A stretch of DNA of 32,000 nt, from the NCBI RefSeq assembly GCF_000341395.1, contig NC_020304.1, positions 2,970,001 through 3,002,000 of the forward strand, read 5' to 3'. The notes under the pieces are model-generated. The model ran no database searches and was not told the origin of the DNA. It saw only the letters and a list, made by a program, of their open reading frames with translations. The DNA comes from Desulfocapsa sulfexigens DSM 10523. GTDB taxonomy: Bacteria > Desulfobacterota > Desulfobulbia > Desulfobulbales > Desulfocapsaceae. Position numbers and translations under genes: made by a program. This document shows, in pieces, positions 16,334 through 32,000 of this stretch; position 1 is the first letter of the stretch; every line of letters starts with the position of its first letter.

Positions 16334-16769
16334 TATATTTCACTTACTTTATTAGATTCCACAAAGAAACTGAGGGGCAGGGGATATCGTGAAGCCGTCA
16401 TCTGTACTTCCAACCACTGTCATTAGGTGTTGCTAATTTCTTAATCTTGCCAGGATACTCTGTCAAGAGAGATCTGAGAAAAAAGTTGAGTCAGTGAGTG
16501 AGCCTAACTTCTTAAGGATTTATGCGACCGTCTTGGGAGTGGAAAACCTGATTTTTCCATTCTATCCTATTACTGTTCCTGATATAATAGTGTGTGAAGG
16601 TAAGGAATTGCTGCATAATATGTATGAATTGTGCTTAAATTAAACAGCAAGATTGTTTCATTAAACTCTTTTTATGTTGAAACGAATTGCTATTAGGGGT
16701 GACTACTGCCAAAGAATGTTATTGATTTGAAAAGGTTTGCTTATTTCTGGATTGGTGAGGTCGTTTATA

Positions 16770-17924
16770 ATGGGCACAGCAGAAAAATGTATCTGGTACA
16801 TTGAAGGTGGTATGAAGGATGGGAAATGTCTCGATGTCCCTATCCATGTATCACCTTTTTTTATTGGAAGAGATAAGGGGTGTCATCTTAGGGTGAAAGC
16901 TCCAGGTGTATCACGAAAACATGTTCAGCTTGAAGTCAATGGTGAAAAGATTTTTGTTGGAGATATGGGGAGTACCAATGGAACGTTTGTGAATCGTAAC
17001 AAAATTACAAGACAGGTTGAAATCAGATCTGGAGATACTATCCATCTGGGCCAGGAGGAACTCCGCATTACAAGGCGTTGTGATTACAAGAAAAATGATC
17101 CTGTTGCCGATGATATTTTGTATAATTCAACGATTATGATAAATATCAACGATCCGATGTTTGCCCTCAATGACGATTTTGTCCAGCAGGAAAAAGAGTT
17201 CAATCTTATGATAACCAACCGGGAGGTTACCATTGTTTTCCAACCGATAGTTTCCTTGTCTGAGTGCGAGGTTGTCGGTTATGAAGCGCTTGGGCGCGGT
17301 TTCAGAAGCGACCTTCCGGAGTCTCCCTGTGATCTGTTTCGGATCGCCGAAAAACTTGGCAGAGCAAAAGAATTAAGTTCAGTCTTCAGGAGCAGAGCAA
17401 TACAGACTTGTCATGAGCTTCCCGGTGCCCCGTTAATTTTTGTGAATACCCATCCTGTTGAAGACCTGACCACTGGACTTCAAAATAATATTGAAGAGAT
17501 GCGCAGGTTGACTGCTCCCTGGCAGGTGGTACTTGAGGTTCATGAGTCAGCAGTGACTGACACCAGAATGATGCTTGAGCTGAAGGAAATACTTCGAGAT
17601 CATGAAATGTATCTTGCCTATGATGATTTTGGTGCTGGGCAGGCAAGGTGGAATGAACTTGTGGAGGCTCCTCCAGATTATCTCAAATTTGACCTGCAAC
17701 TTATTAGGGACATTCATAAGAAAACAACACAAAAACAGGAAATGGTTCGTAAACTGGTTGATATCTGCCTTGATCAGGGTGCCTATCCATTAGCGGAATG
17801 TGTCGAAAACCATGAAGAACTGGAGGCCTGCAGGCATCTAGGCTTTACTCATGGGCAGGGATGGCTCTTTGGAAAACCAGCCGAAGCATCTTTTTTTGCA
17901 GCTACAAAAAATAAAAAGGCCTGA
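16770..17924 (+). CDS. FHA-domain / EAL-domain protein (putative c-di-GMP phosphodiesterase)
   Basis: FHA: 'FFIGRD..C.L......VSRKH.QL.....I.V.D.GSTNGTFVN'. EAL: 'FQPIV.....VVGYEALGR', 'FVNTHP', 'LEVHES', 'YDDFGAG', 'LKFD', 'AECVE', 'HGQGWLFGKP'. All catalytic signatures are present. The ORF opens with TTG at 16737. I prefer ATG 16770, which has GAGG 9 nt upstream. Confidence 0.85.
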   Translation: MGTAEKCIWYIEGGMKDGKCLDVPIHVSPFFIGRDKGCHLRVKAPGVSRKHVQLEVNGEKIFVGDMGSTNGTFVNRNKITRQVEIRSGDTIHLGQEELRITRRCDYKKNDPVADDILYNSTIMININDPMFALNDDFVQQEKEFNLMITNREVTIVFQPIVSLSECEVVGYEALGRGFRSDLPESPCDLFRIAEKLGRAKELSSVFRSRAIQTCHELPGAPLIFVNTHPVEDLTTGLQNNIEEMRRLTAPWQVVLEVHESAVTDTRMMLELKEILRDHEMYLAYDDFGAGQARWNELVEAPPDYLKFDLQLIRDIHKKTTQKQEMVRKLVDICLDQGAYPLAECVENHEELEACRHLGFTHGQGWLFGKPAEASFFAATKNKKA

Positions 17925-18170: not shown

Positions 18171-19442
18171 ATGAAGAATAGGGCAGTTATTCGTTTTTGG
18201 GCAATGATGACAATCCTGTTTTACAGCACAGCCCTTGCTCAGGCAGGGCAGGTGATAACCCAGGGTGAAAGGTCATGGGCCAAACAAGCTGTGCAGCAGG
18301 AAAAGTCACTAGCTGCCGCCAGTTCCCCGAATTCTATTGCGGTACTTTATTTTAACAACAAGTCTGGTCAGGAAAAATTGAACGCTCTGCAAAAAGGTAT
18401 GGCGGTGATGTTGATTTCTGACCTTTCTAAGGTAGAAGAGATTCAGGTTGTTGAACGGGTGAGAATGCAGGCCCTTCTGGATGAGATGGCTCTGGGAGCT
18501 TCCGGTCTTGTTACTGCAGAGACCGCCCCTAAAGTTGGTAAAATGCTCGGTGCCTCCTATGTGGCAAGTGGAGATATCCTCGGTGGAAATACCCAGGAAA
18601 TTTTAATAGATTCTTCTGTTCTTGAAATAATTTTTGAAACCCTTACTCGGCAGCCCATAGCCAGTGGAGCGCTGGATGAACTCTTCAGGCTGGAAAAAGA
18701 GATCCTCTTCAATATTATTGCTCAGATGAGGGTGACCATTTCTCCGGCAAAAAAAATCGAACTCGAAAAGCCATTATCTGTCAGTACTGCAGCTTTGCTG
18801 GCATTGTTTCTTGGTATTGATTACTCCGACAAGGGACGGTATGCCGAGGCTGCCAATATGTACCAGCAGGCTCTGGTCGAGGATCCTAAACTGGAAATGG
18901 CCAGGAGTGCCTTGCAGGAACTCAGAGCAATGGGACTGTCCACTGCTGAGGAGCTAGCGATAGTGGAGGAAACACCTCCTGCACCTCCTTCTCCAGCTGT
19001 GGAAGCTGAAGGCTCTTCCGTTGGCACTGTTGTTCTGGTTGGTCTGGGTGCCGCAGCCATTGGTGGAGCGGTCTTTGCCTTATCAGGATCAGGTTCCAGT
19101 GATGATAATGGATCATCTGATGTCGTTACACCAGAAGTTGATACCACTGCACCAGTTGCTACCCCATCACCTGGTACCAGTGAAACTCTTGACTGCATGA
19201 GCGGGTCTGTTGCTTTTTCTTTTTCTAAATCGATGTCGGACGCTGGTTCTGCTGAAATCTCTCCTAAGGATTTTGCCGACAGCCAGGGATGGTTCGGGGA
19301 CAGTTATGTTATTTCATGGGGGAATGATACCTCCACGTGCAGTAGCAGTCTAACATCCGTACAAATTACTTTAAGAAATTTTGAAGATACGGACGGAAAC
19401 GCACTGGCTAACCCTACAGTGTTTGATTATTCAGTTGAATAA
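18171..19442 (+). CDS. Secreted CsgG/LpoB-like module + TPR-like + hydrophobic segment + Ig-like C-terminal domain protein
   Basis: Signal peptide 'FWAMMTILFYSTALAQA'. Module 'IAVLYFNNKSG...QVVERVRMQALLDEMALGASGLV..ETAPKVGKMLGASYV.SG'. TPR-like 'GRYAEAANMYQQALVEDP'. Hydrophobic 'VGTVVLVGLGAAAIGGAVFAL'. C-terminal 'VAFSFSKSM......ISW......QITL..FEDTDGNAL' resembles SbsA-type bacterial Ig-like domains. AGGAG RBS upstream. Confidence 0.7.
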   Translation: MKNRAVIRFWAMMTILFYSTALAQAGQVITQGERSWAKQAVQQEKSLAAASSPNSIAVLYFNNKSGQEKLNALQKGMAVMLISDLSKVEEIQVVERVRMQALLDEMALGASGLVTAETAPKVGKMLGASYVASGDILGGNTQEILIDSSVLEIIFETLTRQPIASGALDELFRLEKEILFNIIAQMRVTISPAKKIELEKPLSVSTAALLALFLGIDYSDKGRYAEAANMYQQALVEDPKLEMARSALQELRAMGLSTAEELAIVEETPPAPPSPAVEAEGSSVGTVVLVGLGAAAIGGAVFALSGSGSSDDNGSSDVVTPEVDTTAPVATPSPGTSETLDCMSGSVAFSFSKSMSDAGSAEISPKDFADSQGWFGDSYVISWGNDTSTCSSSLTSVQITLRNFEDTDGNALANPTVFDYSVE

Positions 19443-19507: not shown

Positions 19508-20020
19508 TTAGAAAAGTTGTGCTGTGACAGCTTCAACTGCAGCAAGCAGGGCTGAAACATTATCTGCCCTTATCGTATGGACGCCGGTTCGAACAACCGC
19601 TCCCGATGCGACTTCAATAAGGCGAAGATCGATTCGCAGTTGTTCTCCTACCTGTTGAAATCCACCAAAGACCATAAACTGGGCGCCAAGCAGGCGTCCA
19701 ACCTCAAGTCGGCTTGTCTCATCAACTAGCACAGAACTTCCAAGAGATAATTCCTCCAGTGCCAATACCAATTTTTCACGCTCGACAACGATGCATTCTC
19801 CTGACTCTTTCAGGGTTTCAGCAACCTTTGCGGTGAGGAATTCTTGCATGTCATCCAGGATCTGGTTTTCTGTAACGCTGTAATTCTCCAGATTCCAGAC
19901 TGCAACTACACTGCCACTGCCAAAGTATTCCGGTGTGTATTGTGGCTGTGAACCAGCACAGGCGTTAAGGAACATTGGCAGCAGCGATATGAACAAAAAG
20001 GGCCGCAACAACTTCTTCAT
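19508..20020 (-). CDS. Lipoprotein consisting of one CsgG/LpoB-like module
   Basis: Lipobox 'MFLNAC' (Cys21). Module 'VVAVWNLEN......IVVEREKLVLALEELSLGSSVLVDETSRLEVGRLLGAQFMVFG...LRIDLRLIEV'. The ATG overlaps the upstream stop by 4 nt. Confidence 0.75.
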   Translation of the reverse strand: MKKLLRPFLFISLLPMFLNACAGSQPQYTPEYFGSGSVVAVWNLENYSVTENQILDDMQEFLTAKVAETLKESGECIVVEREKLVLALEELSLGSSVLVDETSRLEVGRLLGAQFMVFGGFQQVGEQLRIDLRLIEVASGAVVRTGVHTIRADNVSALLAAVEAVTAQLF

Positions 20021-21984
20021 GATTTGTTTCCTTCTGTAGTTGTAAAGCTCAGCTTCTCCTGCACCTTGTCATCCTGTTGTAATGGTCGTTTGGCATCACG
20101 AATACTGACAACACTCATATCCGGTTCCACTTGAATGACTTCCAGCATAGCCAGTGTTTGAGGAAGTCCATGCAAGGTTTTACCTTTGTATTGTATTGGT
20201 TCACCTTCCATAATGGCTTCGAAAGATGATCCGAGAACAACCCCCTGATTTGTGCCGATATTGATAACAGCCTGGTCACCAGTGATCTGGACAATGAAAC
20301 CCTGTAGTGGATATTTCTCCATAATAGTCCGTAAAATCTCCTGGGTGACCTTTTCTGTTTCCTCTTCAATATTTCTGGCTCCGGTGGCAAGTTTCCTGGT
20401 TAATACTTTGGGGATAGCGGTTGTTTCGGTATCTATCAGGCGGAGACTCAGTAGAGTCTGGTCAGGCAAATGGAGCAGGGCACCGGTGGAAACGATCTTC
20501 GCGGCAAGAATACGACCGAGTTGGAGGGCGGTTTCCGGGTCAGCAAGTTCCGAAGAACCAAGGTTGAGTTCCTCAAGCAGGCGGTCCATCAGTACACGTT
20601 CCACCACTCGTACCCGTCCCGACTGGTTGAGTTGTTCTGCAAGTTGGGTAGTCAAAACCATTGATAATCCGTCTCGTTCGCTCAACCCTCCTTTTTCGTG
20701 GAAATCTACAAAAGAAAGGACCATTGGCCGTGAAGTCCAGTTATCTTTAGAATTGAAGAAGGGGATTACGGTTTCTTTGGAACGAAAGCGTGTGGCTAAT
20801 TCCTTGACTAATTTGTCGATGCGCTGTTTTTCAGAAGTGTTTTTCTGCAACTCCATCATGTCTTTTGTTTGCCTTGCAAGAACTGCAGAAAACTGGTCGT
20901 TTTTATTAATGGTCATGGCCTGCTGAAACATTTCCATGGCTTTATCAAGTTGCCCTTCTTTCTGGTAGGTCACTCCCTTATTGGACATAGCTACAAGATT
21001 ATAGGGATCAAGTTCTACCGTCTGGTCGTAGTTGATACGTGCCAGATCAAAATTTTCTGTACTGGCATAAAGCCTGCCAAGCTGGTTATGGGCCTCAGCT
21101 TTCTGACTCAGGCTTCCCTCCGGTTTAGTTACGGCCTCCTGATATTCTGCCATTGCTTCTTCTTTCTTATTTTGAGCGTAAAGGATGTCACCTTTAATAA
21201 CATTGACAGCACCACGACCCGGTGCTTTGGTTTCAACCTCGTTGGCTACGGCCATAGCTTTTTCAACATTGCCCTCTCTTGCATAAATTTTAGCAAGACC
21301 CTCTTTTCCGAGAATTTCACCTTCTCCAGGTTCCTGTGCCAGATCGTTAAAAATATCTTCCGCTTTATCTACTTCATCTGCCTTGAGAGCCGCGTAGCCA
21401 TAGACAGTTTTTGCCTCAAAGGAATCCGGGTTGTCGGACTGCACTTCCAGACTGATGGCCTGAGCCAAGAGAGGTTCGTTACGCTGTAATTCTCTTTCAG
21501 CGAGGCTGATCAACATTTTTTCAGTACTTTCTCCTCCTCCCTGAAAGGAATTAATGATCCTGCGTTCTGGTCCCAGGATATAGACTGTTGGAAGAATGAG
21601 TTCTGCGTGATATGTGGAACTGATTCCTTTTTGATCCTGCATCACCGGAAAACCTGCCTTATGGGTTACGATGAAATCTGAAACACTGTTTTTACTGGAA
21701 GTGGTAATACCCCATACCAGCAGGTCTGTATCCTTGAAGGAATTGAGAAGTTTGTTTAGAGTCAACAGTCCTTCCTGGCTGGCAGGAGAACTTGTATCAA
21801 AAAAATAAAGGACTATGAGAGAATGGTCTTTCATAGCTGAAAGTTGATAAGGACGGCCATAAACATCTTCCAGAGTGAAATCAGGGGCGACGTCACCTGG
21901 ATTGAACTGTGCCCGGCTTATTGCCGGATTCGTGAGAAGAAGTAGCAATGCTAAAAAGAGCAAAAGTTTGATTTGGTGGTGCAT
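20017..21984 (-). CDS. Secreted multidomain protein: Cys-less redoxin fold + TPR repeats + CsgG/LpoB-like module + C-terminal beta domain
   Basis: Signal peptide 'LLLFLALLLLLTNPAISRA'. AhpC/TSA-redoxin-like 'APDFTLEDVYG.PY.LS..K....VLYFF' carries 'DTSSPAS' where CxxC is expected. There are at least 5 TPR-like units (aa ~190-370). Module 'MVLSFVDF.....RVVERVLMDRLLEELNLGSSELADPETALQLGRILAAK'. C-terminal 'GFIVQITGDQAVINIGTNQGVVLGS.FE'. Confidence 0.75.
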   Translation of the reverse strand: MHHQIKLLLFLALLLLLTNPAISRAQFNPGDVAPDFTLEDVYGRPYQLSAMKDHSLIVLYFFDTSSPASQEGLLTLNKLLNSFKDTDLLVWGITTSSKNSVSDFIVTHKAGFPVMQDQKGISSTYHAELILPTVYILGPERRIINSFQGGGESTEKMLISLAERELQRNEPLLAQAISLEVQSDNPDSFEAKTVYGYAALKADEVDKAEDIFNDLAQEPGEGEILGKEGLAKIYAREGNVEKAMAVANEVETKAPGRGAVNVIKGDILYAQNKKEEAMAEYQEAVTKPEGSLSQKAEAHNQLGRLYASTENFDLARINYDQTVELDPYNLVAMSNKGVTYQKEGQLDKAMEMFQQAMTINKNDQFSAVLARQTKDMMELQKNTSEKQRIDKLVKELATRFRSKETVIPFFNSKDNWTSRPMVLSFVDFHEKGGLSERDGLSMVLTTQLAEQLNQSGRVRVVERVLMDRLLEELNLGSSELADPETALQLGRILAAKIVSTGALLHLPDQTLLSLRLIDTETTAIPKVLTRKLATGARNIEEETEKVTQEILRTIMEKYPLQGFIVQITGDQAVINIGTNQGVVLGSSFEAIMEGEPIQYKGKTLHGLPQTLAMLEVIQVEPDMSVVSIRDAKRPLQQDDKVQEKLSFTTTEGNKS

Positions 21985-22014: not shown

Positions 22015-23664
22015 CTATTCTGGTAAAAGAGAGATGGAGAGTGGAACCAGTCCTCCCTTGCTGAGGTTCAGCTGGGCCTGCCAGTTAAGATGTCCCTGCA
22101 GTTCAAGTTTCACCTCATGTTTTATTGCTGTAACCTCAATCTCCAGGGGGGTTAATCCATGATAGTTCCCGTCTATGTAGAGGCTTGCTCCAGATGGACT
22201 GCTGTTTATTTGTAAGGTTGTTATTTTTTTCTGGATATCGGAATTCTCTTCTTTTCCTATTGGTGGTAGTGAGGCTACTACTGTACCAGGCGTAATTGGT
22301 GACGAAGGTTTTAAGCTGCCATCTGGCTCAATTCCCAGTTCAACTTTTGTCAAGGAAGCTGGTTTCGTGGCAGTTTCAGGCTCGTTTGTGGAGGGAAAAA
22401 TTGGTGCATTCTCTCTGTCATCTGTAAAAAGATCGTCAAACGACTCTTCGACCCGTTGTGCCTGCAACGTTTCTTTTTTTATTTCTGGTACTGCATCGGG
22501 TACGGGAGAGGCTTCTTCAGAATCAGGTGATATAACGGGTGTGGGTGCCACAGATGATTGGGGGACGGAAGGTACATAAATCGGGGCAAGTGGTTCTTCA
22601 GGTTTACTTGGTAGTACTACCGGAGGAACGGGTGTGGTCTCCTCATCTTGCACAGCAATGTGCGAGGGCTGTTCCGATATTGCGGCCGTATTTTTTTGTT
22701 GCTGGACATCATCTGCTGTAGGTGGCCTCATGGTGAGATAAGCGACCAGGGCAGCTCCGCAGAAGAGGAGAGCGGTCGCTATCATAAAGCCGTTATAAGA
22801 ACGCCGTTTTTCAGGTGCTGTCTGAATAATTGTTTCGCTAAAAGATTCCTGAGATTGAACATTAAGACAGTTGCCAAGAAGTTCTGACATCTCCTGGCCA
22901 CTGCGGAATCGATCTTCAGGTTTTCTGGCCATGGCTTTCAGGATCAGCTTTGAGAGAGCCGGGGGGATATCAGGGTTGAGCTGATCCGGTGGAACAGGAT
23001 CATCCTGGGTGATGGCTCTAAAGACGGCAGTGAGGTTCTCACCCTTGAATGGACGATGACCTGTGGTGAGCTCATAGAGAATGACACCTAAAGAGTAAAG
23101 ATCGGATCGACCATCAACGGTTTGTCCCATGACCTGCTCAGGGGCCATATAGACAGGGGTACCAAGGATCTCACCGGCTCGAGTCATCTGCTGACCATCC
23201 GGATCATCGATATGGGCAATCCCAAAGTCTGTTACCTTAAGAATATTTTCAGGAGTACAGATAATATTTGGCGGTTTGATATCACGGTGAATGATCCCTC
23301 TTGTATGTGCATAATGGAGGGCCTGGGCTATCTGTATTCCGATATCAACGATGTCGGTCAGGCTTAAATTGCCAGCTTTGACCAGTTGATCCATGGATTG
23401 CCCTTCCAGAAATTCCATCGCAATGTAGATGGTGCCGTGATCCTGGCCAATATCATAGACTGTCACTATGCCTGGATGGGAGAGTCGTCCAATGGCGGTA
23501 GCTTCTTTGAGAAAACGCTGCACGTAGTCCTCGGTGGTAAGTCGATCTTCACGAAGTACCTTCAGTGCCACCATACGGTTAATCTGAGGGTCATGGGCCT
23601 GATAAACCTTACCCATGGCACCTCTACCGAGTTCGGAAACGATTTCATACCTACCGTATTTCAT
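22015..23664 (-). CDS. Hanks-type Ser/Thr protein kinase with TM helix and periplasmic PEGA domain (PpkA analogue)
   Basis: 'LGRGAMGKVY', 'VALKVL', 'HRDIKPPNI', 'DFGIA', 'GTPVYMAPEQ', 'D.YSLGV.LYE'. TM 'FMIATALLFCGAALVAYLTM'. Pro-rich linker. C-terminal PEGA 'LQINSSPSGASLYIDGNYHGLTPLEIEV'. Confidence 0.9.
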   Translation of the reverse strand: MKYGRYEIVSELGRGAMGKVYQAHDPQINRMVALKVLREDRLTTEDYVQRFLKEATAIGRLSHPGIVTVYDIGQDHGTIYIAMEFLEGQSMDQLVKAGNLSLTDIVDIGIQIAQALHYAHTRGIIHRDIKPPNIICTPENILKVTDFGIAHIDDPDGQQMTRAGEILGTPVYMAPEQVMGQTVDGRSDLYSLGVILYELTTGHRPFKGENLTAVFRAITQDDPVPPDQLNPDIPPALSKLILKAMARKPEDRFRSGQEMSELLGNCLNVQSQESFSETIIQTAPEKRRSYNGFMIATALLFCGAALVAYLTMRPPTADDVQQQKNTAAISEQPSHIAVQDEETTPVPPVVLPSKPEEPLAPIYVPSVPQSSVAPTPVISPDSEEASPVPDAVPEIKKETLQAQRVEESFDDLFTDDRENAPIFPSTNEPETATKPASLTKVELGIEPDGSLKPSSPITPGTVVASLPPIGKEENSDIQKKITTLQINSSPSGASLYIDGNYHGLTPLEIEVTAIKHEVKLELQGHLNWQAQLNLSKGGLVPLSISLLPE

Positions 23665-24602
23665 TGCTTATCCTGCTCATTGAGAAAATCGATAACGGTT
23701 TCAAGAGGGATTAAAAAACCGATTCCGGTGGATACTCGATGGCGCCCTTTGACAATGGCTACAAAAGCACCATTTTCATCGAACACAGGACTGCCACTGC
23801 TGCCTGGTTGAATTTCCATGCTGGCCTGCCATATTGGCTGATTATTTGCCATACGGGGAGGGCCATTGATAAAACCTGAACTGATTGTGCCCCGGAGGCT
23901 TACCGGGCATCCTATTGAGAAGACTTTCTCTCCCATCCCTAGCAAGTTGCGCCCCCCTTCGAGTTCGATAAATTGATCTTTATCGGTTGTGATCTGTATG
24001 AGAGCCAGGTCACGATCAAAATCGATTTTTACAATATCACCCTTGAAATGGGTGTTTATCGTGGAGATGATGTTGACCTCCTCGTGTTCTTTAAGGTCAT
24101 GTGCAGTGGATAGAATTAGCCCTTTTCTGTCTATGAAAACTCCGGAAAACTGAACAGTCTCTCCCTGATGATTTGCATTAATACAGGCAACGGTACCAAT
24201 TTTTTCCAGGATAGTTGCCGGGATTTGCGCTTGCTGCTGGTTCGTTGTGTGGAAGGAGAGTGTATTCTTATCCTTAACGTACTGGAGGAGTTCTTTAAAG
24301 TTCTCTTCTCTCTGTGTATCGTTTTCAACATGGACAGTCAGCTTTGTAGTTAGAGGTGAGTGGGGAGTGAGTTCGATAGACCACCCCTGGTTCAGTTGTA
24401 AGCTTCGGATATGAATCGGACCACCTGGGGTGGTGATGACCTGGAAGGTGAGGTCATTCTTCTCTAGCCATCGGGAAACGGAATCTCGTGTTGCTGCTAT
24501 GGAGAGAGGATATTGCTCAATGATTTCAGAAGAGTGAACGGTGTTCGTGGCGGATAGCCATGCTATGGTGAGGAGAAAAAGGAAGGGGAAATATTTGTTC
24601 AT
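23661..24602 (-). CDS. Secreted trypsin-like (S1/chymotrypsin-fold) serine protease with unknown N-terminal domain
   Basis: Signal peptide 'FPFLFLLTIAWLSATNTVHS'. Triad contexts 'ILSTAHDL' (His), 'DRDLALIQI' (Asp), 'IQPGSSGSPVFDENG' (Ser). Start and stop both overlap neighbours by 4 nt. Confidence 0.8.
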   Translation of the reverse strand: MNKYFPFLFLLTIAWLSATNTVHSSEIIEQYPLSIAATRDSVSRWLEKNDLTFQVITTPGGPIHIRSLQLNQGWSIELTPHSPLTTKLTVHVENDTQREENFKELLQYVKDKNTLSFHTTNQQQAQIPATILEKIGTVACINANHQGETVQFSGVFIDRKGLILSTAHDLKEHEEVNIISTINTHFKGDIVKIDFDRDLALIQITTDKDQFIELEGGRNLLGMGEKVFSIGCPVSLRGTISSGFINGPPRMANNQPIWQASMEIQPGSSGSPVFDENGAFVAIVKGRHRVSTGIGFLIPLETVIDFLNEQDKQ

Positions 24603-25339
24603 GGTAAGACTTCCACCAGTACTGCGGTAATATTGTCACGGCCACCATTGGTCTTAGCACGTTCAATAAGCGTGGCAGTTCGTTGCTGCAGCGATTCTCT
24701 TCTGAGGAGTATTTTCGTAATAACCTCTTCGGTAACCATATCAGTCAGTCCATCGGAGCAGAGAAGAAAAAGATCTTTTGTCAAATATCGCCCTCGAATA
24801 ATATCAATTTCCAGTTTCTCTTCAATCCCTACTGCTCTGCTGATTACATTACGTAAACGGTGTGTTCGTGCAGCTTCTTTGGAAATCAAGCCTTGATCCA
24901 CCTGATTCTGGACAAGCGAATGATCCTTGGTCAGGCGGGTCAGCTTTCCATTGCGAAGGCGGTATGATCTGCTGTCTCCTATATGACCCAGAGCAAAGCC
25001 ATTATGATGAAAGAGGAGAAGTTCAGCCGTACATCCCATGCCACTGTGGTCTGGGGTGCTAAGAATATGGCTTCTGATTTCCTTATTGGCCGTAAGAAAA
25101 ATCTTCTTAATCAGAGCCACAGTGTTACTTTCTGATTGATTTCCAGATTGAGGAATTAGTTGAGCAGCTGTATCTGCAAATATTCGACTTGCAATCTCAC
25201 CGGCGGCTGCACCGCCCATACCGTCAGCAACAAGAAAACAATATGTGTCTTTCTGTATAAAGTAGCTATCTTCATTACTGCTACGATGCAAGCCGATATC
25301 AGTCAAGCCGCTGGCTGATAACTTGAGGTTCATTTCCAT
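24599..25339 (-). CDS. PP2C-family Ser/Thr phosphatase (PppA/Stp analogue)
   Basis: 'R..NEDS', 'VADGMGG...GE.AS', 'HIGDSR.Y', 'LLCSDGL.D', 'GGRDNITAV'. These are the complete PP2C metal-binding signatures. Confidence 0.9.
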   Translation of the reverse strand: MEMNLKLSASGLTDIGLHRSSNEDSYFIQKDTYCFLVADGMGGAAAGEIASRIFADTAAQLIPQSGNQSESNTVALIKKIFLTANKEIRSHILSTPDHSGMGCTAELLLFHHNGFALGHIGDSRSYRLRNGKLTRLTKDHSLVQNQVDQGLISKEAARTHRLRNVISRAVGIEEKLEIDIIRGRYLTKDLFLLCSDGLTDMVTEEVITKILLRRESLQQRTATLIERAKTNGGRDNITAVLVEVLP

Positions 25340-25680: not shown

Positions 25681-26703
25681 ATGAATATCCCAGATAAAAA
25701 AGTACAGTTAGTGCATCTGAACGGGCCGTTTAAAGGTGAAATTCAAGATTTCTTTGAATCGGTTATTGTTATTGGGAGACATCCTGATTGCCAGCTGGTC
25801 TTTCCGAGTGATTCCACAGCAATTTCACGGAAACATGCTGAAATTAGACGGGAGGGGAACCGCTTCAAGTTTCTGGATTACAGCGCAAATGGTACCCTGA
25901 TCAATGGTATAGAGCAAAAAGATGTTTTTTTAAAAGATGGTGATGTGCTGATTATTGGTGGAGAGGGAGGGCCAAAGGTCAGTTTTTTGAGTTCAAAAGT
26001 TACTCCCGAAGAAAAGGAGGCCATTGCTTCTTCTGGAGATATGAATAGACAGCAGGATCCAAGTGTATCGCTGTCACCGCCTGATAAGGTGCAGACACCT
26101 AAAATAGAAGAGTCGCCTGAAAATGTTCCGCTAGCTCAGTCTCTGCAGAAATCACCAGTGATAGAACCTTTGCCATCGTCATCGATGAAAGGTCCTCGAG
26201 ATTCTGCGCCGATTCCTACAGTTAATAAAAGCTTTATCATCCAGTATGGGGCAACCCTTACCTCCTTTAAGAAGTTACCAATCATCATCGGGAGTGGCAG
26301 TGATTGTGACTGTACATTGCAGCATCATGCTCTGCTTGACCACCATGCACAGATTTTCTTCCGGGACAATCAGTACTGGGTGAAAGACCTTACCGGCCGT
26401 GGAATGCTGACGGTCAATTTACGACCGGTTCAGTCTGAATCATCGCTTCAGCCAGATACCTGTCTGGCCCTCACACCTCAGGGGCCTAAGTTTCAATTTC
26501 TTGGCGAAGGCAGGCTAGCTGAAATTGAGACAACGGAAGAATCGGAAAAGAGACTGGAACCAGTGCAATCAGACAAGTACCAGCAACAGCAATCAAGAGG
26601 ATCCAGTGTCAAACCATCCGGAGGCGGCAAAAAGCTGTTCTGGATTCTGTTTACTCTGCTGCTTGTACTCGGGATTCCAATAGCAGTCTGGTATTTCCTG
26701 TAA
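25681..26703 (+). CDS. Tandem-FHA protein with C-terminal membrane anchor (Fha/TagH-like)
   Basis: FHA1 is canonical: 'IGRHPDC.LVF......ISRKHAEI.......F.D.SANGTLING'. FHA2 (aa ~184-275) is degenerate. C-terminal TM 'LFWILFTLLLVLGIPIAVWYFL'. It is divergent from the PP2C operon. Confidence 0.8.
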   Translation: MNIPDKKVQLVHLNGPFKGEIQDFFESVIVIGRHPDCQLVFPSDSTAISRKHAEIRREGNRFKFLDYSANGTLINGIEQKDVFLKDGDVLIIGGEGGPKVSFLSSKVTPEEKEAIASSGDMNRQQDPSVSLSPPDKVQTPKIEESPENVPLAQSLQKSPVIEPLPSSSMKGPRDSAPIPTVNKSFIIQYGATLTSFKKLPIIIGSGSDCDCTLQHHALLDHHAQIFFRDNQYWVKDLTGRGMLTVNLRPVQSESSLQPDTCLALTPQGPKFQFLGEGRLAEIETTEESEKRLEPVQSDKYQQQQSRGSSVKPSGGGKKLFWILFTLLLVLGIPIAVWYFL

Positions 26704-26793: not shown

Positions 26794-28362
26794 ATGGAAC
26801 AGATATCTATTCCAGATTTCCCTTTTTCCATTCTTGCACTTGCACCGTTTACTTCAGAAGTAAATCCTGGTGTGACCGTCAAACTTCTTGCAGTTGATCC
26901 TTTGGATATTGATCAGGCACTAACTGCGTTGATGCCATCTTTTTTTCTCTCTCTCCCAGTTGCAGAATGTCCTGCCGGTGGGCTTCATCTTCGATTCAGG
27001 AAAATGCGCGATTTCACCCCTGACGGTCTTTTGCAGAGTCAACCATATCTTGAGAATTTGCTTGCCGCTCATCGTTTCTGCCTTGAGGCTGAACAGCAAA
27101 AGAAGTCTACAGAGGTAATTATTGAAGGAGTTAAGAAGTGGCCTGATCTACCCCCGATCTCACTGACTCAGAAAAAAAAGGACGAGGAAGAAAAAAAGAG
27201 TTCCCTGGAGAGTATTTTATCCATGGTGGCTTTGCCGGAAGAAGACAGTTCAGTCAAGGGAGCCACTGCAGGAGGAACTGGATTTTATGGCGCACTGGCC
27301 CGTAAAATTCTAGACAGCATCTATACCGATCCAATATTTCGATCCCTTGAGTCCTGCTGGCAGGGTTTGCGATATCTCGGTCGCCATCTTGCTGAGGCTG
27401 GTGGTCGTTTGTCAATATTACCGATATCTCATAATAACATTGAAAAAGTCCTGGATGAACAAAGAGAAGAGATCATACTTGATCCTCCTTCTGTCATTCT
27501 TGTTGATCAGCCCTTAAGCAGTTCAGAGAGATCCGTGCAAATGATGACTCAGCTCGCTTCCTTTGGCCAGGAGATGCTTGTACCTGTGCTTACCTGGTTG
27601 GATGCTTCGTTTTTCCAGATTGAAAATTGGAAGAATCTTGATAGCCTTTCTTTTCTTCCCCACCACTTGGAAAAAGCATCCTTTGCCAGGTATAAAGGTT
27701 TGCAGAATTCCGATTTGAGTCGCTGGATAGGGTTGAGCTGCAATCGTTTTGGGACTCGTTTCCCCTATGGGCCTGAGAACCGATCACGCCTTCTTCCTTT
27801 CAGGGAAAAGGAGATGCTCTGGCTCTCTTCGGTATGGGGAGTTGCAGCTCTTATGGCTTCCCGCGTAAGGCAAACCGGATGGCCAACGGGTATGGCCTCA
27901 TCACGGCAGATCTGTCTGGAAGATTTGGCTCTTGCCCTGGAAGGTTCGGTTGAACAAAGTCCGCTTGAGGTACAATGGAGTGAAAGTCGGCTGGAACAGG
28001 TTTCCCGTTGCGGCATTATGGCGCTGGCCGGATGGAAGGGAAGGGATAGCGCTTTTCTTGCCGGTGATGTCATGGCCTCGACGGATAGTAGTTTGAGTTA
28101 TCAGACCTTGCTTTGCAGAGTGAGCCACTTTATCCTCTGGTGTCGGGACAATTGGCAGGAACCTTTGCTGGCAGATGAATTGGCTAGTCGATTGCACACT
28201 GCCTTTCAACTGTTTACCAAAAAACAGGGGGAGTATCCTGTTGGTGATTTTGGGGTGGAGTGTCACGATGATAAAGGGGCTATTCAGGTCTTGTTTCGAT
28301 GGATCCCTTCCAGGCACATTCTCCCCAGCGGACAGGAGATAGTGCTGGAGTTTGGCTGGTAA
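26794..28362 (+). CDS. Fused TssB(VipA)-like / TssC(VipB)-like T6SS contractile-sheath protein
   Basis: aa 5-100 track VipA: 'DFPFSILALAPFT' vs 'ELPLKVLMLGDFT', and 'LHLRFRKMRDFTPDGLL...L.NLL' vs 'VDLNFESMNDFSPESVV'. aa ~165-522 track VipB: 'FRSLESCWQGLRYL' vs 'FQAMESAWRGLKLF', 'RWIGLSCNRFGTRFPYGPEN' vs 'RYLGLTAPRFLLRVPYDPIEN', 'LWLSSVWGVAALMA', 'TGWP', 'E...SRCGIMAL....GRDSAFLAG', 'CRVSHFILWCRDNW'. A Lys/Glu-rich linker (KKKDEEEKK) joins the two parts. AAGGAGG RBS upstream. VipA/VipB comparisons are from memory. Confidence 0.65.
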   Translation: MEQISIPDFPFSILALAPFTSEVNPGVTVKLLAVDPLDIDQALTALMPSFFLSLPVAECPAGGLHLRFRKMRDFTPDGLLQSQPYLENLLAAHRFCLEAEQQKKSTEVIIEGVKKWPDLPPISLTQKKKDEEEKKSSLESILSMVALPEEDSSVKGATAGGTGFYGALARKILDSIYTDPIFRSLESCWQGLRYLGRHLAEAGGRLSILPISHNNIEKVLDEQREEIILDPPSVILVDQPLSSSERSVQMMTQLASFGQEMLVPVLTWLDASFFQIENWKNLDSLSFLPHHLEKASFARYKGLQNSDLSRWIGLSCNRFGTRFPYGPENRSRLLPFREKEMLWLSSVWGVAALMASRVRQTGWPTGMASSRQICLEDLALALEGSVEQSPLEVQWSESRLEQVSRCGIMALAGWKGRDSAFLAGDVMASTDSSLSYQTLLCRVSHFILWCRDNWQEPLLADELASRLHTAFQLFTKKQGEYPVGDFGVECHDDKGAIQVLFRWIPSRHILPSGQEIVLEFGW

Positions 28363-28407
28363 CCCGTTGTTCGGCTCCAGTTTTTTACCACTGAGAGTAA
28401 ATGAGAA

Positions 28408-29175
28408 TCAGCCGGCCGGGTTTCGCAACTGCTGTTGCAGAAGATCTGGCATATTGTCGATGGCATCCCTGCTGACAATTTCCTGGAAGGCAGGAATACC
28501 AGAGAGCTGGGTCACCTCGGTAATAAATTTATCAGGTGGCAGGAAGGTTGATAATGGTGTGCTGATCATAACTGCCGGAAGATTGCCAAGATCTGGTAAT
28601 TTGTAAATATCTACCTGATAGCGAAGATCTTCAAGCAAGGTCTTCAGATTTGGAAAATGTTCCAGTAGCAGAACTAGACTGAGGTGGCAGATTATGGCCT
28701 GGCGCATATCTTCAGTCTGACGAGCCTCCTTGCCACTCAGCATACCTCGCAGACGATCCAGGGGACATTCGCTCTGATAAGAAACGATGAAACGGGTAGG
28801 TGAGGTGATGGTAATGGCTTTTGCATCGCTACCATCAATGGTCAGTTCATACTGCAGCGGGGTGCATTCAAGAACATTGGAAATGGCTGGTAGCGGTGGC
28901 TGGAGTTTCCTGGGGAGTTGAAATGGTGATTCGCAGAGGGCACTGAAACTTTCCTGCAGTTCTGCAAATGCTTTGTCTGAACCATGGGTCTCCTGTTGAG
29001 AGGCACTTTTAATGTAGGTTCCGAGGAGTTTACGTGGAATGAAGAGCGGTCGCAGGGTGCTGAGATGGTCTCTCAGGCGTTGACCCAGAAAGGAGCTGAT
29101 CTTATCGGTTGCCTGTCGGAGTTCAAGGAATTCCTGGCTGTCCAGATCGGTGCGGGGAATGTTGAGTTCAGTCAT
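28408..29175 (-). CDS. Hypothetical protein (no recognisable domain), last gene of the vgrG operon
   Basis: Long uninterrupted frame with no TM or signal peptide. ATG at 29175 is preferred. The ORF-track start at 29217 is a TTG that overlaps the upstream gene. The composition looks coding and no competing ORF exists. Confidence 0.55.
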   Translation of the reverse strand: MTELNIPRTDLDSQEFLELRQATDKISSFLGQRLRDHLSTLRPLFIPRKLLGTYIKSASQQETHGSDKAFAELQESFSALCESPFQLPRKLQPPLPAISNVLECTPLQYELTIDGSDAKAITITSPTRFIVSYQSECPLDRLRGMLSGKEARQTEDMRQAIICHLSLVLLLEHFPNLKTLLEDLRYQVDIYKLPDLGNLPAVMISTPLSTFLPPDKFITEVTQLSGIPAFQEIVSRDAIDNMPDLLQQQLRNPAG

Positions 29176-29200
29176 AGTATTTTCTCTTTTGTGTTGTAGG

Positions 29201-29980
29201 CTATTGTAATGAAACAATAAATGCCTCGGTTTCCTCTTCAGAAGAGTAAGGGCAGAACATTATTTTTTTCGGTGACCCTGCAACCTTTAGATAATAGGAA
29301 CTGGACGAATCGATTTCATTTTGCACTCCCCAGGCCGTAAACTTTTGATCACCCATTGTTATTTCCAAGCCCTGCTGCGGGTAGTTGAGGACTGTCTTTT
29401 CAGGGAGTTGACCAGCTGGACCGACAGCGTGGAGTTTGATTTCACCATCGCTGACCCCAAAAATTGCACCCTTCCAGTTCCCTTTTAAGGGGCCCACTTC
29501 AAACCATTGACCGATGTTGGGGATGCCATAGACATCCATCCTGTACTCTGACTGGATCTTGTGCAGCGGCGTATGGACGATGGCTATCAGCTTGGCTGCG
29601 TAGGATTCGTTTGCAAGTGGTAAAATCTTTACATTGGCGAAGGGTGTAGGCAGGGTGTCTGGCTGTATAGTATCTTCTCCGATTTGGAGAATAACAATAG
29701 GAAAGTCCTGGCCCCGTTCTGCCTGCACTCCAAGAGCCAGCATTGCCAGTCCGTAACGGAAGCTTGGCTGCTGAAGACTTTCAGCTGAAGTTACTAGCAG
29801 CCACATGGAAACATTGTGATCGACCAATTGCTTACGGGGTGCTGCCCAGGCCATTTTGTCGAGGTCATCTGTAAAGAAGTGACCATCTGCAGCGAGGCCA
29901 TAGCTCTGCAGTTTGCCCATAACCGACTGAACCGTTTCCTGGGAACAGTTGAATGCACTGAGCCATATTTTTTTCTGCAT
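29201..29980 (-). CDS. Hypothetical protein; N-terminal flavodoxin/TIR-like alpha-beta segment (tentative) + beta-rich C-terminal domain
   Basis: ATG at 29980 sits 7 nt after the upstream stop, with AGGA overlapping that stop. The ORF-track start at 30052 is a TTG inside the upstream gene. 'KIWLSAF......V..V...L...GL...GHFF.DD......W......L.....MWLLVTS..S' loosely follows a TIR-like/DUF1863 pattern. I see no catalytic signature. Confidence 0.55.
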   Translation of the reverse strand: MQKKIWLSAFNCSQETVQSVMGKLQSYGLAADGHFFTDDLDKMAWAAPRKQLVDHNVSMWLLVTSAESLQQPSFRYGLAMLALGVQAERGQDFPIVILQIGEDTIQPDTLPTPFANVKILPLANESYAAKLIAIVHTPLHKIQSEYRMDVYGIPNIGQWFEVGPLKGNWKGAIFGVSDGEIKLHAVGPAGQLPEKTVLNYPQQGLEITMGDQKFTAWGVQNEIDSSSSYYLKVAGSPKKIMFCPYSSEEETEAFIVSLQ

Positions 29981-29987
29981 GGTATTC

Positions 29988-31454
29988 CTATTTTGCCGCA
30001 ATAATGAGCGGATTGTCAAAATCAAAGCCAAAGAGACCGGGGTTTTCTCCAATCACTGCCGCTGAAAAAATGTAGAACACATAGTCATAGGTTTGTTCGG
30101 GTATTTTATCACGATACTGTTTAAAAAACTGCCAGAAATTACGTTCTTTTGGATTATTCGGCATATCTCTCACAAGTTGAATAACGCGGTTTTCTCCCCA
30201 GTTGTACGAGGCCATTACCAATAGCCCGGAGGCCTGAGCATCGGTATCGTAAATTTTTCGCAGGTACTTTGCTGCGGCCACGGTTGATTTGGCAAAATTA
30301 TGCCGCTCGTCAAGGGGATCTACCTTTCGTTGCTTAAAAAGGGGACCTGTTTGCAGGCCATATCGAGAGCCGGTTTCAGGAATGAATTGCCACATACCTT
30401 TGGCAATACCCCAGCGGGTTTTAGGGCCCAGGGCATTTACGTTAAAATTACTTTCCTGCAGAGCCAGATAAAAGAACTGTGGTGGGAGAAAATAATAGCG
30501 CATGGTTCTGGCAATTGGAGAAGTGTAGCCATTGTTTTCTGCGCGTTCCAGGGCGTTAACAAGACGGCTGCTTGACTGCCACTTCTTGATGTAGCGTATG
30601 ACTTCACTGGTAAAGTCAGCAGGAACAAATATTTCACATTCACCAAAAATTCTCGCAGTTTTTAGAATTGCCTCTTCCTGGGGACTGATATTTTTATAGA
30701 TCCCGAGAGTGTCGACAAATTCGCTATAGCTGTTTTCCAACTCTCTTGCCTGCTGTTTATAATATTCTACCCTGGCAATGGTAGCAGTGTCATCACTGTC
30801 TCGTGCTGTTTGAAGAACATCTGCAAACTCTACTTCCAGTCCTTTCATGGTATAGAAGATTTCAGCAGCGAGTTTTTTTTGTTTCTCAACCTGCAGATGC
30901 ATGTAGATGGCAACTGAGCCAGCAATACAAAAAAGGCAGGTAACCAGGCCAATGATGATACCATACTTTCTTTTCTGTTTTTTCTGAACCTGGGCAAAGG
31001 CACGTCTAACCATTATGGTGTGCTCACCTGCGTCCCCGTCATCCTTATCACCGAAATAATGTTCCTGATAGTGGGACATGGATCGTGGAGTTCCAGGCTT
31101 TTTAGTTTCCTGGAAAGGCTGGTCAACCGACAGTGTAAGGAGTGGCCCGTTTCTTCCCAGTTCAATCCTGGTCAGTTTTTTAATGGCAATGCGATTAACC
31201 CGGTTACCGTCAACAAAAATACCATTGGCACTATTACAGTCTTGAATCCACCAGGTGTCTGCCAGAAAAATTACCTCGGCATGGTGGCGACTGACTACCG
31301 GATCGGTAATAGCTATATCACAGTCGGGATCACGACCGACACGAAAAGAGGAGGAAAATGCGCGTTCTGCAAACTGTCCGGCTGGCCATGTTGCTGAGAC
31401 TAAAACAGCTGGAGGTGACGAATTCTGCCCGTTATTTTCCAGCCTTTGAATCAT
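29988..31454 (-). CDS. FHA domain - TM helix - lytic transglycosylase (SLT family) protein
   Basis: FHA: 'FRVGRDPDCDIAI.D..VSRHHAEV.......IQD.NSANGIFVDG'. TM: 'YGIIIGLVTCLFCIAGSVAIYMHL'. SLT: 'LALQESNFN.NA.....GIAKGMWQFIPETG..YGL', 'D.LDERHNF.KST.AAAKYL', 'MASYNWGENRV', with the catalytic Glu in 'QES'. Confidence 0.8.
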   Translation of the reverse strand: MIQRLENNGQNSSPPAVLVSATWPAGQFAERAFSSSFRVGRDPDCDIAITDPVVSRHHAEVIFLADTWWIQDCNSANGIFVDGNRVNRIAIKKLTRIELGRNGPLLTLSVDQPFQETKKPGTPRSMSHYQEHYFGDKDDGDAGEHTIMVRRAFAQVQKKQKRKYGIIIGLVTCLFCIAGSVAIYMHLQVEKQKKLAAEIFYTMKGLEVEFADVLQTARDSDDTATIARVEYYKQQARELENSYSEFVDTLGIYKNISPQEEAILKTARIFGECEIFVPADFTSEVIRYIKKWQSSSRLVNALERAENNGYTSPIARTMRYYFLPPQFFYLALQESNFNVNALGPKTRWGIAKGMWQFIPETGSRYGLQTGPLFKQRKVDPLDERHNFAKSTVAAAKYLRKIYDTDAQASGLLVMASYNWGENRVIQLVRDMPNNPKERNFWQFFKQYRDKIPEQTYDYVFYIFSAAVIGENPGLFGFDFDNPLIIAAK

Positions 31455-31463
31455 ATCAATTGA

Positions 31464-31871
31464 TTAGGGTGCTAACAAAAGGACTTTGGTTTGGCTGGGT
31501 ACTATCCTCATACCAGGAACATTTGTACCATTCTGCAGAGTTGGACTTGTCAGCCGTGTCGCTGGTTTTCCCTGGAAAAGCACGGTAAACGATCCTGCTA
31601 GATGCCGTGAAGGCCCCATGACTCTGCCAGAGGCTACTCCCATGGAGACACCTGCATTGTCACCATTGGTCATGGGGGTGACCGTTCCCATGTTATGAGC
31701 TGGCATTCCCATGATAAGAATTTTCGTACATGCGGTACCAGGATTTGCTGTGGGTCCCATTGCAATATTCGGATAAGGAATAGGTACAGGCGCAGGTGCT
31801 GGTGGAGCAGGGGTTAAACAAACGTCAGGAAAAGCAAAATCCTGACCCATCATTTGTGAATTGGCAAACAT
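31464..31871 (-). CDS. Stand-alone PAAR-like (DUF4150-type) T6SS spike-tip protein
   Basis: 'FPDVCLTP.......PIPYPNIA', 'T..KILI.G.PA.N......MT.GD..G...GV.SG...G......GS..V...GKP..RL.......NG.N..G' is the DUF4150/PAAR-like pattern. GAGGAGG RBS upstream. It starts 12 nt after the upstream stop. Confidence 0.75.
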   Translation of the reverse strand: MFANSQMMGQDFAFPDVCLTPAPPAPAPVPIPYPNIAMGPTANPGTACTKILIMGMPAHNMGTVTPMTNGDNAGVSMGVASGRVMGPSRHLAGSFTVLFQGKPATRLTSPTLQNGTNVPGMRIVPSQTKVLLLAP

Positions 31872-31883
31872 TATTATCCTCCT

Positions 31884-32000
31884 CTAACCCATATGGATCA
31901 TTTTCCCATCAATCTTTATATTTTCTTTTGCAGTAACAACAGAATATTTGCCACGTAAGGACATCAGTCTTTCTGCATTGTAATCGATCTTACCAGCCTT
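31884..32000 (-). CDS. 3' end of a VgrG / phage-spike-like gene (partial, runs off the window)
   Basis: Hand translation of the minus strand gives ...KAGKIDYNAERLMSLRGKYSVVTAKENIKIDGKMIHMG*. The alternating beta-helix-like ending 'IKIDG..I..G' and the position directly upstream of a PAAR-like gene fit a VgrG C-terminus. Only 38 codons are visible. Confidence 0.4.
   Translation of the reverse strand, partial: KAGKIDYNAERLMSLRGKYSVVTAKENIKIDGKMIHMG

Follow-up and report, generated by a model that had tools for sequence, protein, structure and literature searches.

In the 32,000-nucleotide stretch of Desulfocapsa sulfexigens DSM 10523 analysed here (NC_020304.1, positions 2,970,001 to 3,002,000; referred to below as the window), the gene at 29988 to 31454 encodes a protein that joins a forkhead-associated (FHA) domain, a transmembrane (TM) helix and a lytic transglycosylase (SLT) domain. 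The protein, called FHA-TM-SLT, is predicted to be a bitopic inner-membrane protein, with the FHA domain in the cytoplasm and a helical region and the SLT domain in the periplasm. Its gene recurs inside or beside the core loci for type VI secretion systems (T6SS) in unrelated lineages and by this recurrence is a T6SS-associated gene (TAG). The FHA-TM-SLT family is real and widespread, and it appears to be undescribed. The parts of the gene and of its product are as follows.

29988 to 31454, minus strand: FHA-TM-SLT gene, one intact open reading frame (ORF) of 488 aa with an ATG start
31125 to 31406, minus strand: predicted cytoplasmic FHA domain, residues 17-110, with the phosphothreonine (pThr) pocket G40, R41, S55, R56, H58, S75, N77 and G78 (Pfam, AlphaFold2, Foldseek)
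30996 to 31031, minus strand: juxtamembrane motif A-G-E-H-T146-x-x-[IV]-R, residues 142-153 (family alignment, n = 105)
30897 to 30965, minus strand: predicted single TM helix, residues 164-186, N-in/C-out (hydropathy)
30543 to 30896, minus strand: predicted periplasmic helical region, residues 187-304 (AlphaFold2 and the invariant Y243, E272 of an FGECE motif, and W292)
30018 to 30542, minus strand: predicted periplasmic SLT domain (GH23, family 1, MltD-like), residues 305-479 (Pfam, alignment to PDB 8rhe, NCBIfam)

The original prediction had proposed this domain order from the DNA letters, at ranges that convert to residues 17-110 (FHA), 164-186 (TM) and 325-470 (SLT). These ranges are borne out by the strands of the structural model, the only hydropathy peak and the 8rhe alignment, and the profile check placed both domains above their curated Pfam thresholds: PF00498 (FHA) matched residues 38-100 with E = 3e-18 and 66.4 bits against a cutoff of 20.7, and PF01464 (SLT) matched residues 316-434 with E = 7.5e-15 and 55 bits against 21.3. 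The motifs that had been quoted are all present in the 488-aa protein, namely G40-R41, S55-R56-H57-H58 and S75-A76-N77-G78 in the FHA domain and E334-S335, G353-M-W-Q-F and Y417-N-W-G420 in the SLT domain, where S416 precedes the last of these.

The AlphaFold2 model, built with 49 homologues as input, has a mean predicted local distance difference test score (pLDDT) of 77.8. It comprises an FHA beta-sandwich with strands at residues 17-110 (pLDDT 83-92), a disordered linker at residues 113-145 and then a long helix across the membrane segment, the helical region and the SLT domain, with helices at residues 142-209, 211-219, 223-250, 258-269, 281-293 and 297-307. The FHA part superposes on FHA-1 of Rv1747 in Foldseek, with a TM(target) score of 0.84 and a root-mean-square deviation of 2.4. 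Concerning the membrane segment, the sole hydrophobic peak of the protein is found in the 19-residue Kyte-Doolittle windows starting at residues 163-171, with a maximum of 2.48.

The best PDB sequence match of the SLT domain was 8rhe (E = 6.4e-8), aligned over residues 305-479, and its best NCBIfam match was MltD (NF008050), which failed with 51 bits against an equivalog cutoff of 508. Pfam gave no LysM match and the protein has no N-terminal signal, its only hydrophobic segment being the internal one. When the full-length model was compared with the PDB by Foldseek, only FHA matches appeared among the top 50 and the periplasmic part was not placed. The relationship to MltD rests on the sequence searches, by which the catalytic domain is MltD-like and not MltD. 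As for the FHA side, the TagH model TIGR03354 failed (39.4 bits against a cutoff of 120.25), with an alignment restricted to the FHA part, the Pfam Yop-YscD_cpl model was passed (50.2 bits against 33.2), and the FhaB/FipA model gave a below-threshold match to the FHA domain.

A search of a set of 5.8 billion proteins found both domains in all of the 120 best matches, which shared 53-100% identity with the query; therefore, the ORF is not a chance one. The named sources of these matches were Desulfobulbus, Candidatus Electrothrix, Desulfopila, Desulfofustis and Desulfobacterales, and their database names were 'FHA domain-containing protein', 'transglycosylase SLT domain-containing protein' or 'membrane-bound lytic murein transglycosylase D'. 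An exhaustive search of representatives at 50% identity (E<=1e-30) gave a family of 277 clusters; among the 150 matches listed, most align over most of the query, down to about 35% identity, and around one fifth are short fragments. For the architecture, which had been proposed as something to look for elsewhere, a scan of one genome per species found a relative in more than 558 species. The hosts include Desulfobacterota, Acidobacteriota (Acidobacteriaceae and Bryobacteraceae), Ignavibacteria and other Bacteroidota, Nitrospirota and Aminicenantes. An artefact of gene fusion was considered and rejected, since the architecture recurs in hundreds of genomes.

Residue conservation was counted in an alignment of 105 family members. 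In the FHA pocket, G40 and S75 are kept in 104 of them, R41, S55, N77 and G78 in 103, H58 in 102 and R56 in 95. In the active site of the SLT domain, E334, S335, G353, W355, Q356, Y417, N418 and G420 are present in 105/105, W419 in 104 and M354 in 85. The periplasmic helical region also has E272 in all 105 members, and Y243 and W292 are invariant columns. Both functional sites are under strong constraint across several phyla; the FHA domain looks like a competent pThr reader on the cytoplasmic side, and the SLT domain most likely still cleaves peptidoglycan.

The proposed topology, FHA inside and SLT outside, agrees with the family as a whole. Of 80 members, 78 have a single TM segment, and in 76 the N-terminal flank of the segment is richer in K/R (median 6, against 3 on the C-terminal side), which under the positive-inside rule puts the FHA domain in the cytoplasm and the SLT domain in the periplasm. 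Just ahead of this segment, T146 is kept in 98/105 members and G143 in 97/105, and the +3 position is I, V, M or L in 101/105. The sequence AGEHT146xx[IV]R matches the pT-x-x-[I/V/L] type of FHA ligand, which is the preference of mycobacterial and Rad53 FHA domains, and this motif is a candidate phospho-acceptor and FHA-docking site.

The genomic context of the family was surveyed in the best-scoring loci only, about 80 of them (82 in the counts), by ORF clustering, Pfam annotation of the cluster representatives and iterated local profiles. This survey replaced plain tblastn of the window proteins (50% coverage), which was too insensitive beyond Desulfobacterota. Linkage was counted in those 36 loci whose flanks reached 8 kb or more on each side. 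T6SS marker genes were found in 24 of these and a Ser/Thr kinase (STK) or PP2C phosphatase gene also in 24; both kinds were present in 19, either in 29 and neither in 7. The chance expectation is about 1%, a rough estimate from a T6SS locus of about 30-50 kb in a genome of 4-6 Mb. Moreover, members with a T6SS link turn up across the family's sequence clusters. The association with T6SS made in the original prediction therefore holds in several phyla, although it is not universal. Among the 41 kinase/phosphatase-linked loci, FHA-TM-SLT is the sole FHA ORF of the fetched stretch in 30, so that it occupies the Fha position of a ppkA-pppA-fha triad.

In the window, the gene lies in a cluster with the following neighbours.

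31881 to 32000, minus strand: 3' end of a DUF3540 gene that continues past the window edge (sequence, translation, synteny with loci L001 and L003)
31464 to 31871, minus strand: PAAR-like gene for a spike tip, the immediate upstream neighbour of FHA-TM-SLT (Pfam Tox-PAAR-like, E = 5.5e-40)
29201 to 29980, minus strand: d1, 259-aa soluble protein with a TIR/flavodoxin-like N-terminal domain and a C-terminal beta-sandwich (AlphaFold2)
28408 to 29175, minus strand: d2, 255-aa soluble protein, co-conserved with d1
26794 to 28362, plus strand: VipB-like 522-aa protein, gene convergent to d2 (Pfam VipB, E = 7e-28; VipA, 0.0025)
25681 to 26703, plus strand: double-FHA protein, 340 aa (Pfam FHA twice, E = 1.1e-24)
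24599 to 25339, minus strand: PP2C Ser/Thr phosphatase, putative PppA-like role (Pfam PP2C_2, E = 9.8e-15)
23661 to 24602, minus strand: periplasmic trypsin-like (HtrA-type) protease (Pfam Trypsin_2, E = 7.4e-19; signal-like N-terminus)
22015 to 23664, minus strand: Hanks-type Ser/Thr kinase with a TM segment at about residues 290-313 and a periplasmic PEGA domain, putative PpkA-like role (Pkinase, E = 1.8e-54; PEGA, E = 8.6e-14)
20017 to 21984, minus strand: exported AhpC-TPR-CsgG protein with an AhpC/TSA thioredoxin-like domain (Pfam)
19508 to 20020, minus strand: exported CsgG-like small lipoprotein (Pfam; lipobox)
18171 to 19442, plus strand: exported CsgG-TPR protein (Pfam)
16737 to 17924, plus strand: FHA-EAL protein at the cluster edge, pThr reader and cyclic di-GMP phosphodiesterase (EAL, E = 4.1e-41; FHA, E = 7e-19)

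The minus-strand genes are tightly packed, with a gap of 9 nt between the PAAR-like and FHA-TM-SLT genes, 7 nt between FHA-TM-SLT and d1, and 25 nt between d1 and d2. The gene had been described as lying right after the spike genes, which is true of the PAAR-like gene, whose adjacency to FHA-TM-SLT is repeated in L001, L003, L004 and L057. The vgrG gene, in contrast, is outside the window and its position is deduced from the syntenic relatives, where a 611-aa gene, a DUF2169-pentapeptide gene, VgrG and ClpV lie upstream of DUF3540.

Regarding the soluble proteins, d1 has 124 homologues, all annotated as hypothetical, and it gave no Pfam or NCBIfam match and has no hydrophobic segment. Its AlphaFold2 model (pLDDT 94.5) has weak Foldseek matches to SPARTA TIR-APAZ, its invariant residues concentrate in the beta-sandwich (G157, W159, E161, W169, G171), and in a subset of loci it is co-conserved with the FHA-TM-SLT gene. 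For d2, searches of Pfam, NCBIfam and the PDB found no match. Homologues of d2 head T6SS core operons elsewhere (L086, 5548-6312; L087, 8170-8955; L090, 8045-9022), that of L090 adjoining a Pfam-confirmed tssA, and d2 thus looks like another unnamed T6SS-associated gene.

The VipB-like protein has a weak TssB/VipA-like N-terminus and a TssC-like middle domain (residues 231-424), its PDB matches to TssC cover residues 231-421 only, and the VipB_2 C-terminal domain was not detected in it. Its profile also matches the true TssC (2e-73) and TssB (2e-12) of L086, L087 and L090, and in 8-10 related loci its gene again neighbours d1, d2 and the double-FHA gene. It looks like a relative of the sheath subunits in a single chain. 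The double-FHA protein reached 66 bits with the TagH model, below the cutoff of 120, and it may be tail-anchored, as it has a C-terminal hydrophobic tail at residues 314-332.

The exported CsgG/LpoB-like and TPR proteins have signal peptide and lipobox features, and proteins of the same kind lie beside the kinase in 39 of the 82 related loci. By analogy with TagQ and TagR, these proteins may serve the kinase pathway as its sensor arm. Furthermore, the FHA-EAL protein is a hint that cyclic di-GMP signalling may receive input from this kinase as well.

A scan of 28000-32000 for promoters and terminators gave nothing above the shuffled expectation. In PADLOC, FHA-TM-SLT, d1, d2 and the double-FHA protein had no defence-system match. 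The kinase matched generic kinase models only, and the matches of the protease, the PP2C and the VipB-like protein were weak or generic. A reading of the cluster as a defence system was dropped after these results. Past about 16.7 kb of the window there are housekeeping genes (FeoB, cation efflux, gamma-glutamyl transpeptidase and others). Unrelated to the finding is a 598-aa protein made up of about 15 MORN repeats (4913-6709, plus strand; Pfam, E = 2.9e-98), encoded among genes of amino-acid and glutathione metabolism.

Several gene layouts around FHA-TM-SLT recur in the relatives. Desulfopila sp. IMCC35008 has, in sequence, ClpV, VgrG, DUF2169-pentapeptide, the 611-aa gene, DUF3540, PAAR-like, FHA-TM-SLT, d1 and d2, followed by the double-FHA gene on the opposite strand, PP2C, the trypsin-like protease, STK-PEGA and CsgG-like genes. 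This is the Desulfobulbales-type layout (Desulfopila, Desulfocapsaceae), ClpV-VgrG-DUF2169-DUF3540-PAAR-like-FHA-TM-SLT-d1-d2 with PP2C, protease, STK and CsgG-like genes nearby. In Ignavibacteria and Aminicenantes, VgrG and a PAAR-like or DcrB-like gene can precede FHA-TM-SLT, with the stretch from vgrG to the PAAR-like gene in Ignavibacteria as in the Desulfobulbales, and PP2C, STK and CsgG/TPR genes follow it; a PP2C gene directly downstream is common to loci of Ignavibacteria, Aminicenantes and Acidobacteria.

Acidobacteriaceae present two forms. In the first one, TssF, TssG, ClpV, VgrG and two TssK genes precede FHA-TM-SLT, and the opposite strand carries CsgG-like and STK-TPR genes. The two tandem TssK genes are full-length (451-453 aa) and immediately upstream of the FHA-TM-SLT gene in L055 (7171-9894) and L068 (7163-9886), both copies being strong Pfam T6SS_VasE matches in L068 and profile-labelled in L055. 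In the second form, FHA-TM-SLT and PP2C are followed by TssM, TssL and TssK on the other strand. Its TssL has 245 aa and is DotU-only, hence without a wall-binding extension.

Three metagenome loci (L086, L087 and L090) have genes for a 2xFHA-TM-SLT protein and an STK-PEGA kinase divergent from a T6SS core operon, which in L090 comprises tssA, tssB, tssC and tssE by Pfam and tssF, tssG, clpV and the d2-like head gene by local profiles. In several Desulfobacterales (L084, 11512-13398; L008; L009; L018), a gene for a caspase-like (Peptidase_C14)-FGE-sulfatase protein comes directly after FHA-TM-SLT, and T6SS genes are absent within 10 kb; FGE-sulfatase is the type of domain known from Pseudomonas TagR. 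Bryobacteraceae and a few others have no recognisable partner genes beside it.

Relatives with other N-terminal domains were also found. Two FHA domains precede the TM segment in the distant representatives P0123, P0127 and P0205. In the mutually divergent P0246, P0251 and P0254, a Ser/Thr kinase domain replaces the FHA domain and is followed by a TM segment and the same helical and SLT module, with the E-S motif intact and the periplasmic helical region retained; P0254 also has AGEQT, related to the AGEHT146 motif, before its TM segment. Each of these kinase-TM-SLT fusions is a singleton when clustered at 90% identity and occurs on 1-2 contigs; the fusions are therefore rare, although they represent three independent cases. 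They act as a Rosetta stone that ties the periplasmic module directly to a kinase. A metagenome scan seeded with P0254 found no further kinase-TM-SLT fusions. The matches that seemed to cover the full length of P0254 in that scan were rejected because the search tool had merged adjacent FHA-TM-SLT and kinase genes; several of the loci so matched nevertheless adjoin T6SS core operons.

Taken together in a composite reading, FHA-TM-SLT would be an accessory part of a pThr-controlled T6SS, in the Fha1/TagH position beside a PpkA-like kinase and a PppA-like PP2C, with wall cutting gated by the FHA domain. The chances of this reading are judged to be about even. In it, the periplasmic CsgG, TPR and PEGA components would activate the kinase, which would phosphorylate a threonine in its own chain, in TssL (by analogy with Agrobacterium, where p-TssL is bound by Fha; PMC13584744) or at the juxtamembrane T146 of FHA-TM-SLT. 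The FHA domain would bind the resulting pThr, and this binding would recruit, cluster or activate the transglycosylase where the TssJLM/baseplate complex assembles. Opening or engagement of the wall would be limited to that place and time, and the PP2C phosphatase would reset the pathway. Both the phospho-dependent control and the transglycosylase activity of the protein are steps that we infer from sequence.

Several observations weigh against this composite. Seven of the 36 well-flanked loci have no T6SS gene and no kinase gene within 10 kb, and the complete genome CP070707.1 has two copies of the gene, of which only one is beside vgrG. AlphaFold2 places T146 in a helix, at low-to-moderate confidence, which is less than ideal in an FHA ligand. 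No T6SS core genes are present in the window itself. The survey relied on a crude ORF caller and home-made profiles, applied to the best-scoring loci only. Finally, several Desulfobacterales loci have the caspase-FGE-sulfatase, double-FHA, PP2C and STK-PEGA genes near FHA-TM-SLT and no T6SS gene within 10 kb, and from such loci, where the kinase module stands by itself, the gene may belong first to the kinase module and to T6SS only through it.

This last point leads to the main alternative, an outside-in one with the flow of information reversed, which is possible although on the whole unlikely. In this case the protein would be a sensor or scaffold, and the helical and SLT module would bind or process peptidoglycan (wall damage, muropeptides) as the ectodomain of a Hanks-kinase pathway, either in direct fusion with the kinase or by docking on it with the FHA domain, in the manner of PASTA on PknB and with T6SS as one of several outputs. 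The kinase-TM-SLT fusions do place the module where a receptor kinase has its ectodomain; nevertheless, they are three singletons, on 1-2 contigs each. STK/PP2C linkage is as frequent as T6SS linkage, at times with no T6SS genes nearby, the module travels with sensor-like periplasmic parts (CsgG/TPR, PEGA, and FGE-sulfatase as in TagR), and the FHA-EAL protein of the window could be a second output. On the other hand, such full retention of the active site, catalytic Glu included, is seen more typically in enzymes than in pure binders, and FHA domains read pThr and do not activate kinases. A bolder form of the same idea is speculative and rather improbable: the helical and SLT region would be a peptidoglycan-sensing ectodomain, part of the kinase chain in the rare fusions and docked on the kinase by the FHA domain and a juxtamembrane pThr in the main family, that couples wall damage or muropeptide turnover to phospho-dependent T6SS assembly as a counter-attack, being an analogue of the PASTA kinases that replaces the soluble Fha1 in several phyla.

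It is doubtful that the protein is a housekeeping lytic transglycosylase controlled by Ser/Thr phosphorylation for growth or division, as the actinobacterial FhaA/FipA, with an incidental T6SS adjacency. Some loci do lie among housekeeping genes (L084, Bryobacteraceae), and the below-threshold FhaB/FipA match of the FHA domain would fit. However, T6SS genes are present in 24 of the 36 well-flanked loci from at least 3 phyla, the gene is found inside core operons and the linked members occur across the sequence clusters, whereas no division or elongation genes recur beside it in the surveyed loci.

Finally, a Tge-like muramidase or transglycosylase effector delivered by the upstream VgrG-PAAR spike is very improbable, and the original prediction had also argued against it: the gene does follow a PAAR-like gene directly, which is a frequent cargo slot, and some wall-targeting toxins have an SLT fold, but the protein has an internal TM segment with N-in topology and a cytoplasmic signalling domain, and it is an orthologue of near-constant length in many phyla rather than polymorphic cargo. 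There is also no periplasmic immunity partner adjacent to it, since d1 and d2 have no signal peptides and the downstream gene is a PP2C in other phyla. In Candidatus Electrothrix sp. GW3-4, real cargo sits between the PAAR-like and FHA-TM-SLT genes (L002, 5523-9176), namely an RHS-WHH nuclease toxin with its SUKH immunity gene, in an insert that also carries ParE and PIN/MazE toxin-antitoxin pairs and has a Cas6 gene downstream; this cassette shows the slot where real cargo is placed.

Among the known systems, the composite reading is closest to the wall enzymes that serve T6SS. MltE and TagX are required for assembly of the T6SS membrane complex according to a 2026 review (PMC13584744). MltE of EAEC Sci1 is, like FHA-TM-SLT, a T6SS-associated family-1 lytic transglycosylase that faces the periplasm, and TagX of Acinetobacter and Burkholderia shares with it a gene in the T6SS locus and an inner-membrane anchor (PMC13584744). 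They differ in that MltE is a lipoprotein with a housekeeping role that TssM recruits and activates, TagX, a VanY-type L,D-endopeptidase, has another fold, and both are without a cytoplasmic domain or a phospho-signalling link. The statement that known T6SSs borrow a housekeeping hydrolase was therefore inexact, as TagX is itself T6SS-encoded (PMC13584744). MltD (family 1D, PDB 8rhe) is the closest in catalytic-domain sequence and shares the E-S, G-x-W-Q and Y-N-x-G motifs, although it is a lipoprotein with LysM repeats, whereas FHA-TM-SLT is anchored by an internal TM helix.

On the signalling side, the Fha1/TagH-PpkA-PppA sets of Pseudomonas H1, Agrobacterium and Serratia likewise combine an FHA protein, a membrane Hanks kinase and a PP2C in T6SS loci. 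TagH is nevertheless soluble and has a long C-terminal region, and FHA-TM-SLT may work like Fha without being a TagH orthologue. We know of no TagH that has a TM helix and a periplasmic enzyme. Ser/Thr phospho-signalling is also tied to peptidoglycan in the PASTA kinases (PknB/Stk1) and in FhaA/FipA, where an FHA domain docks on a juxtamembrane pThr, and the kinase-TM-SLT relatives mimic the kinase-TM-PASTA layout. The PASTA ectodomain is not an enzyme fold and these kinases are Gram-positive, in contrast with FHA-TM-SLT, which occurs in Gram-negatives and is T6SS-linked.

The layout of an FHA domain, a TM segment and a periplasmic domain is the same as in SctD/YscD/PrgH, from the inner-membrane ring of the type III secretion system (T3SS), and in Myxococcus GltG. 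Their periplasmic parts build rings or are otherwise non-enzymatic, while FHA-TM-SLT has an SLT domain there. Moreover, the FHA-like domains of SctD are generally without a pThr pocket, and this pocket is conserved in the FHA-TM-SLT family; no T3SS genes were found near the gene in the window. SLT-family enzymes encoded within the gene cluster of a machine are also known from VirB1 (type IV secretion), EtgA/IpgF (T3SS) and SltF/FlgJ (flagella), which open the wall locally for their machines. These are soluble periplasmic proteins controlled by protein partners, in contrast with a membrane-bound enzyme that has a phospho-reader. By these analogies, FHA-TM-SLT could be described as a T6SS-dedicated wall enzyme, TagX/MltE-like, joined to an Fha-type pThr reader, and as a member of neither family.

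No protein of the FHA-TM-SLT type is listed in the table of T6SS accessory genes of the 2026 review (PMC13584744), and the literature search found no paper mentioning both an FHA domain and an SLT domain. As far as titles and abstracts tell, the literature retrieved by pairing FHA or forkhead-associated, lytic transglycosylase and T6SS treats them as separate topics. For the passage of T6SS through the wall and the confinement of wall cleavage, only two systems are named as having been studied, MltE activated by TssM, and TagX (PMC13584744). The FHA-TM-SLT family points to a third and widespread solution, in which the wall enzyme is tethered to the inner membrane and has its own pThr reader. 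With such a reader on the enzyme, the kinase/phosphatase switch that licenses T6SS assembly could also position or gate wall cutting. The protein is, moreover, a rare Gram-negative candidate for a peptidoglycan hydrolase directly under Hanks-kinase signalling. Its hosts belong to environmentally important and little-studied groups, such as relatives of cable bacteria, soil Acidobacteriota and Ignavibacteria, in which, to our knowledge, the regulation of T6SS appears largely unexplored. The fusion of FHA and SLT may come as a moderate surprise to T6SS specialists, and it makes the licensing of wall opening testable.

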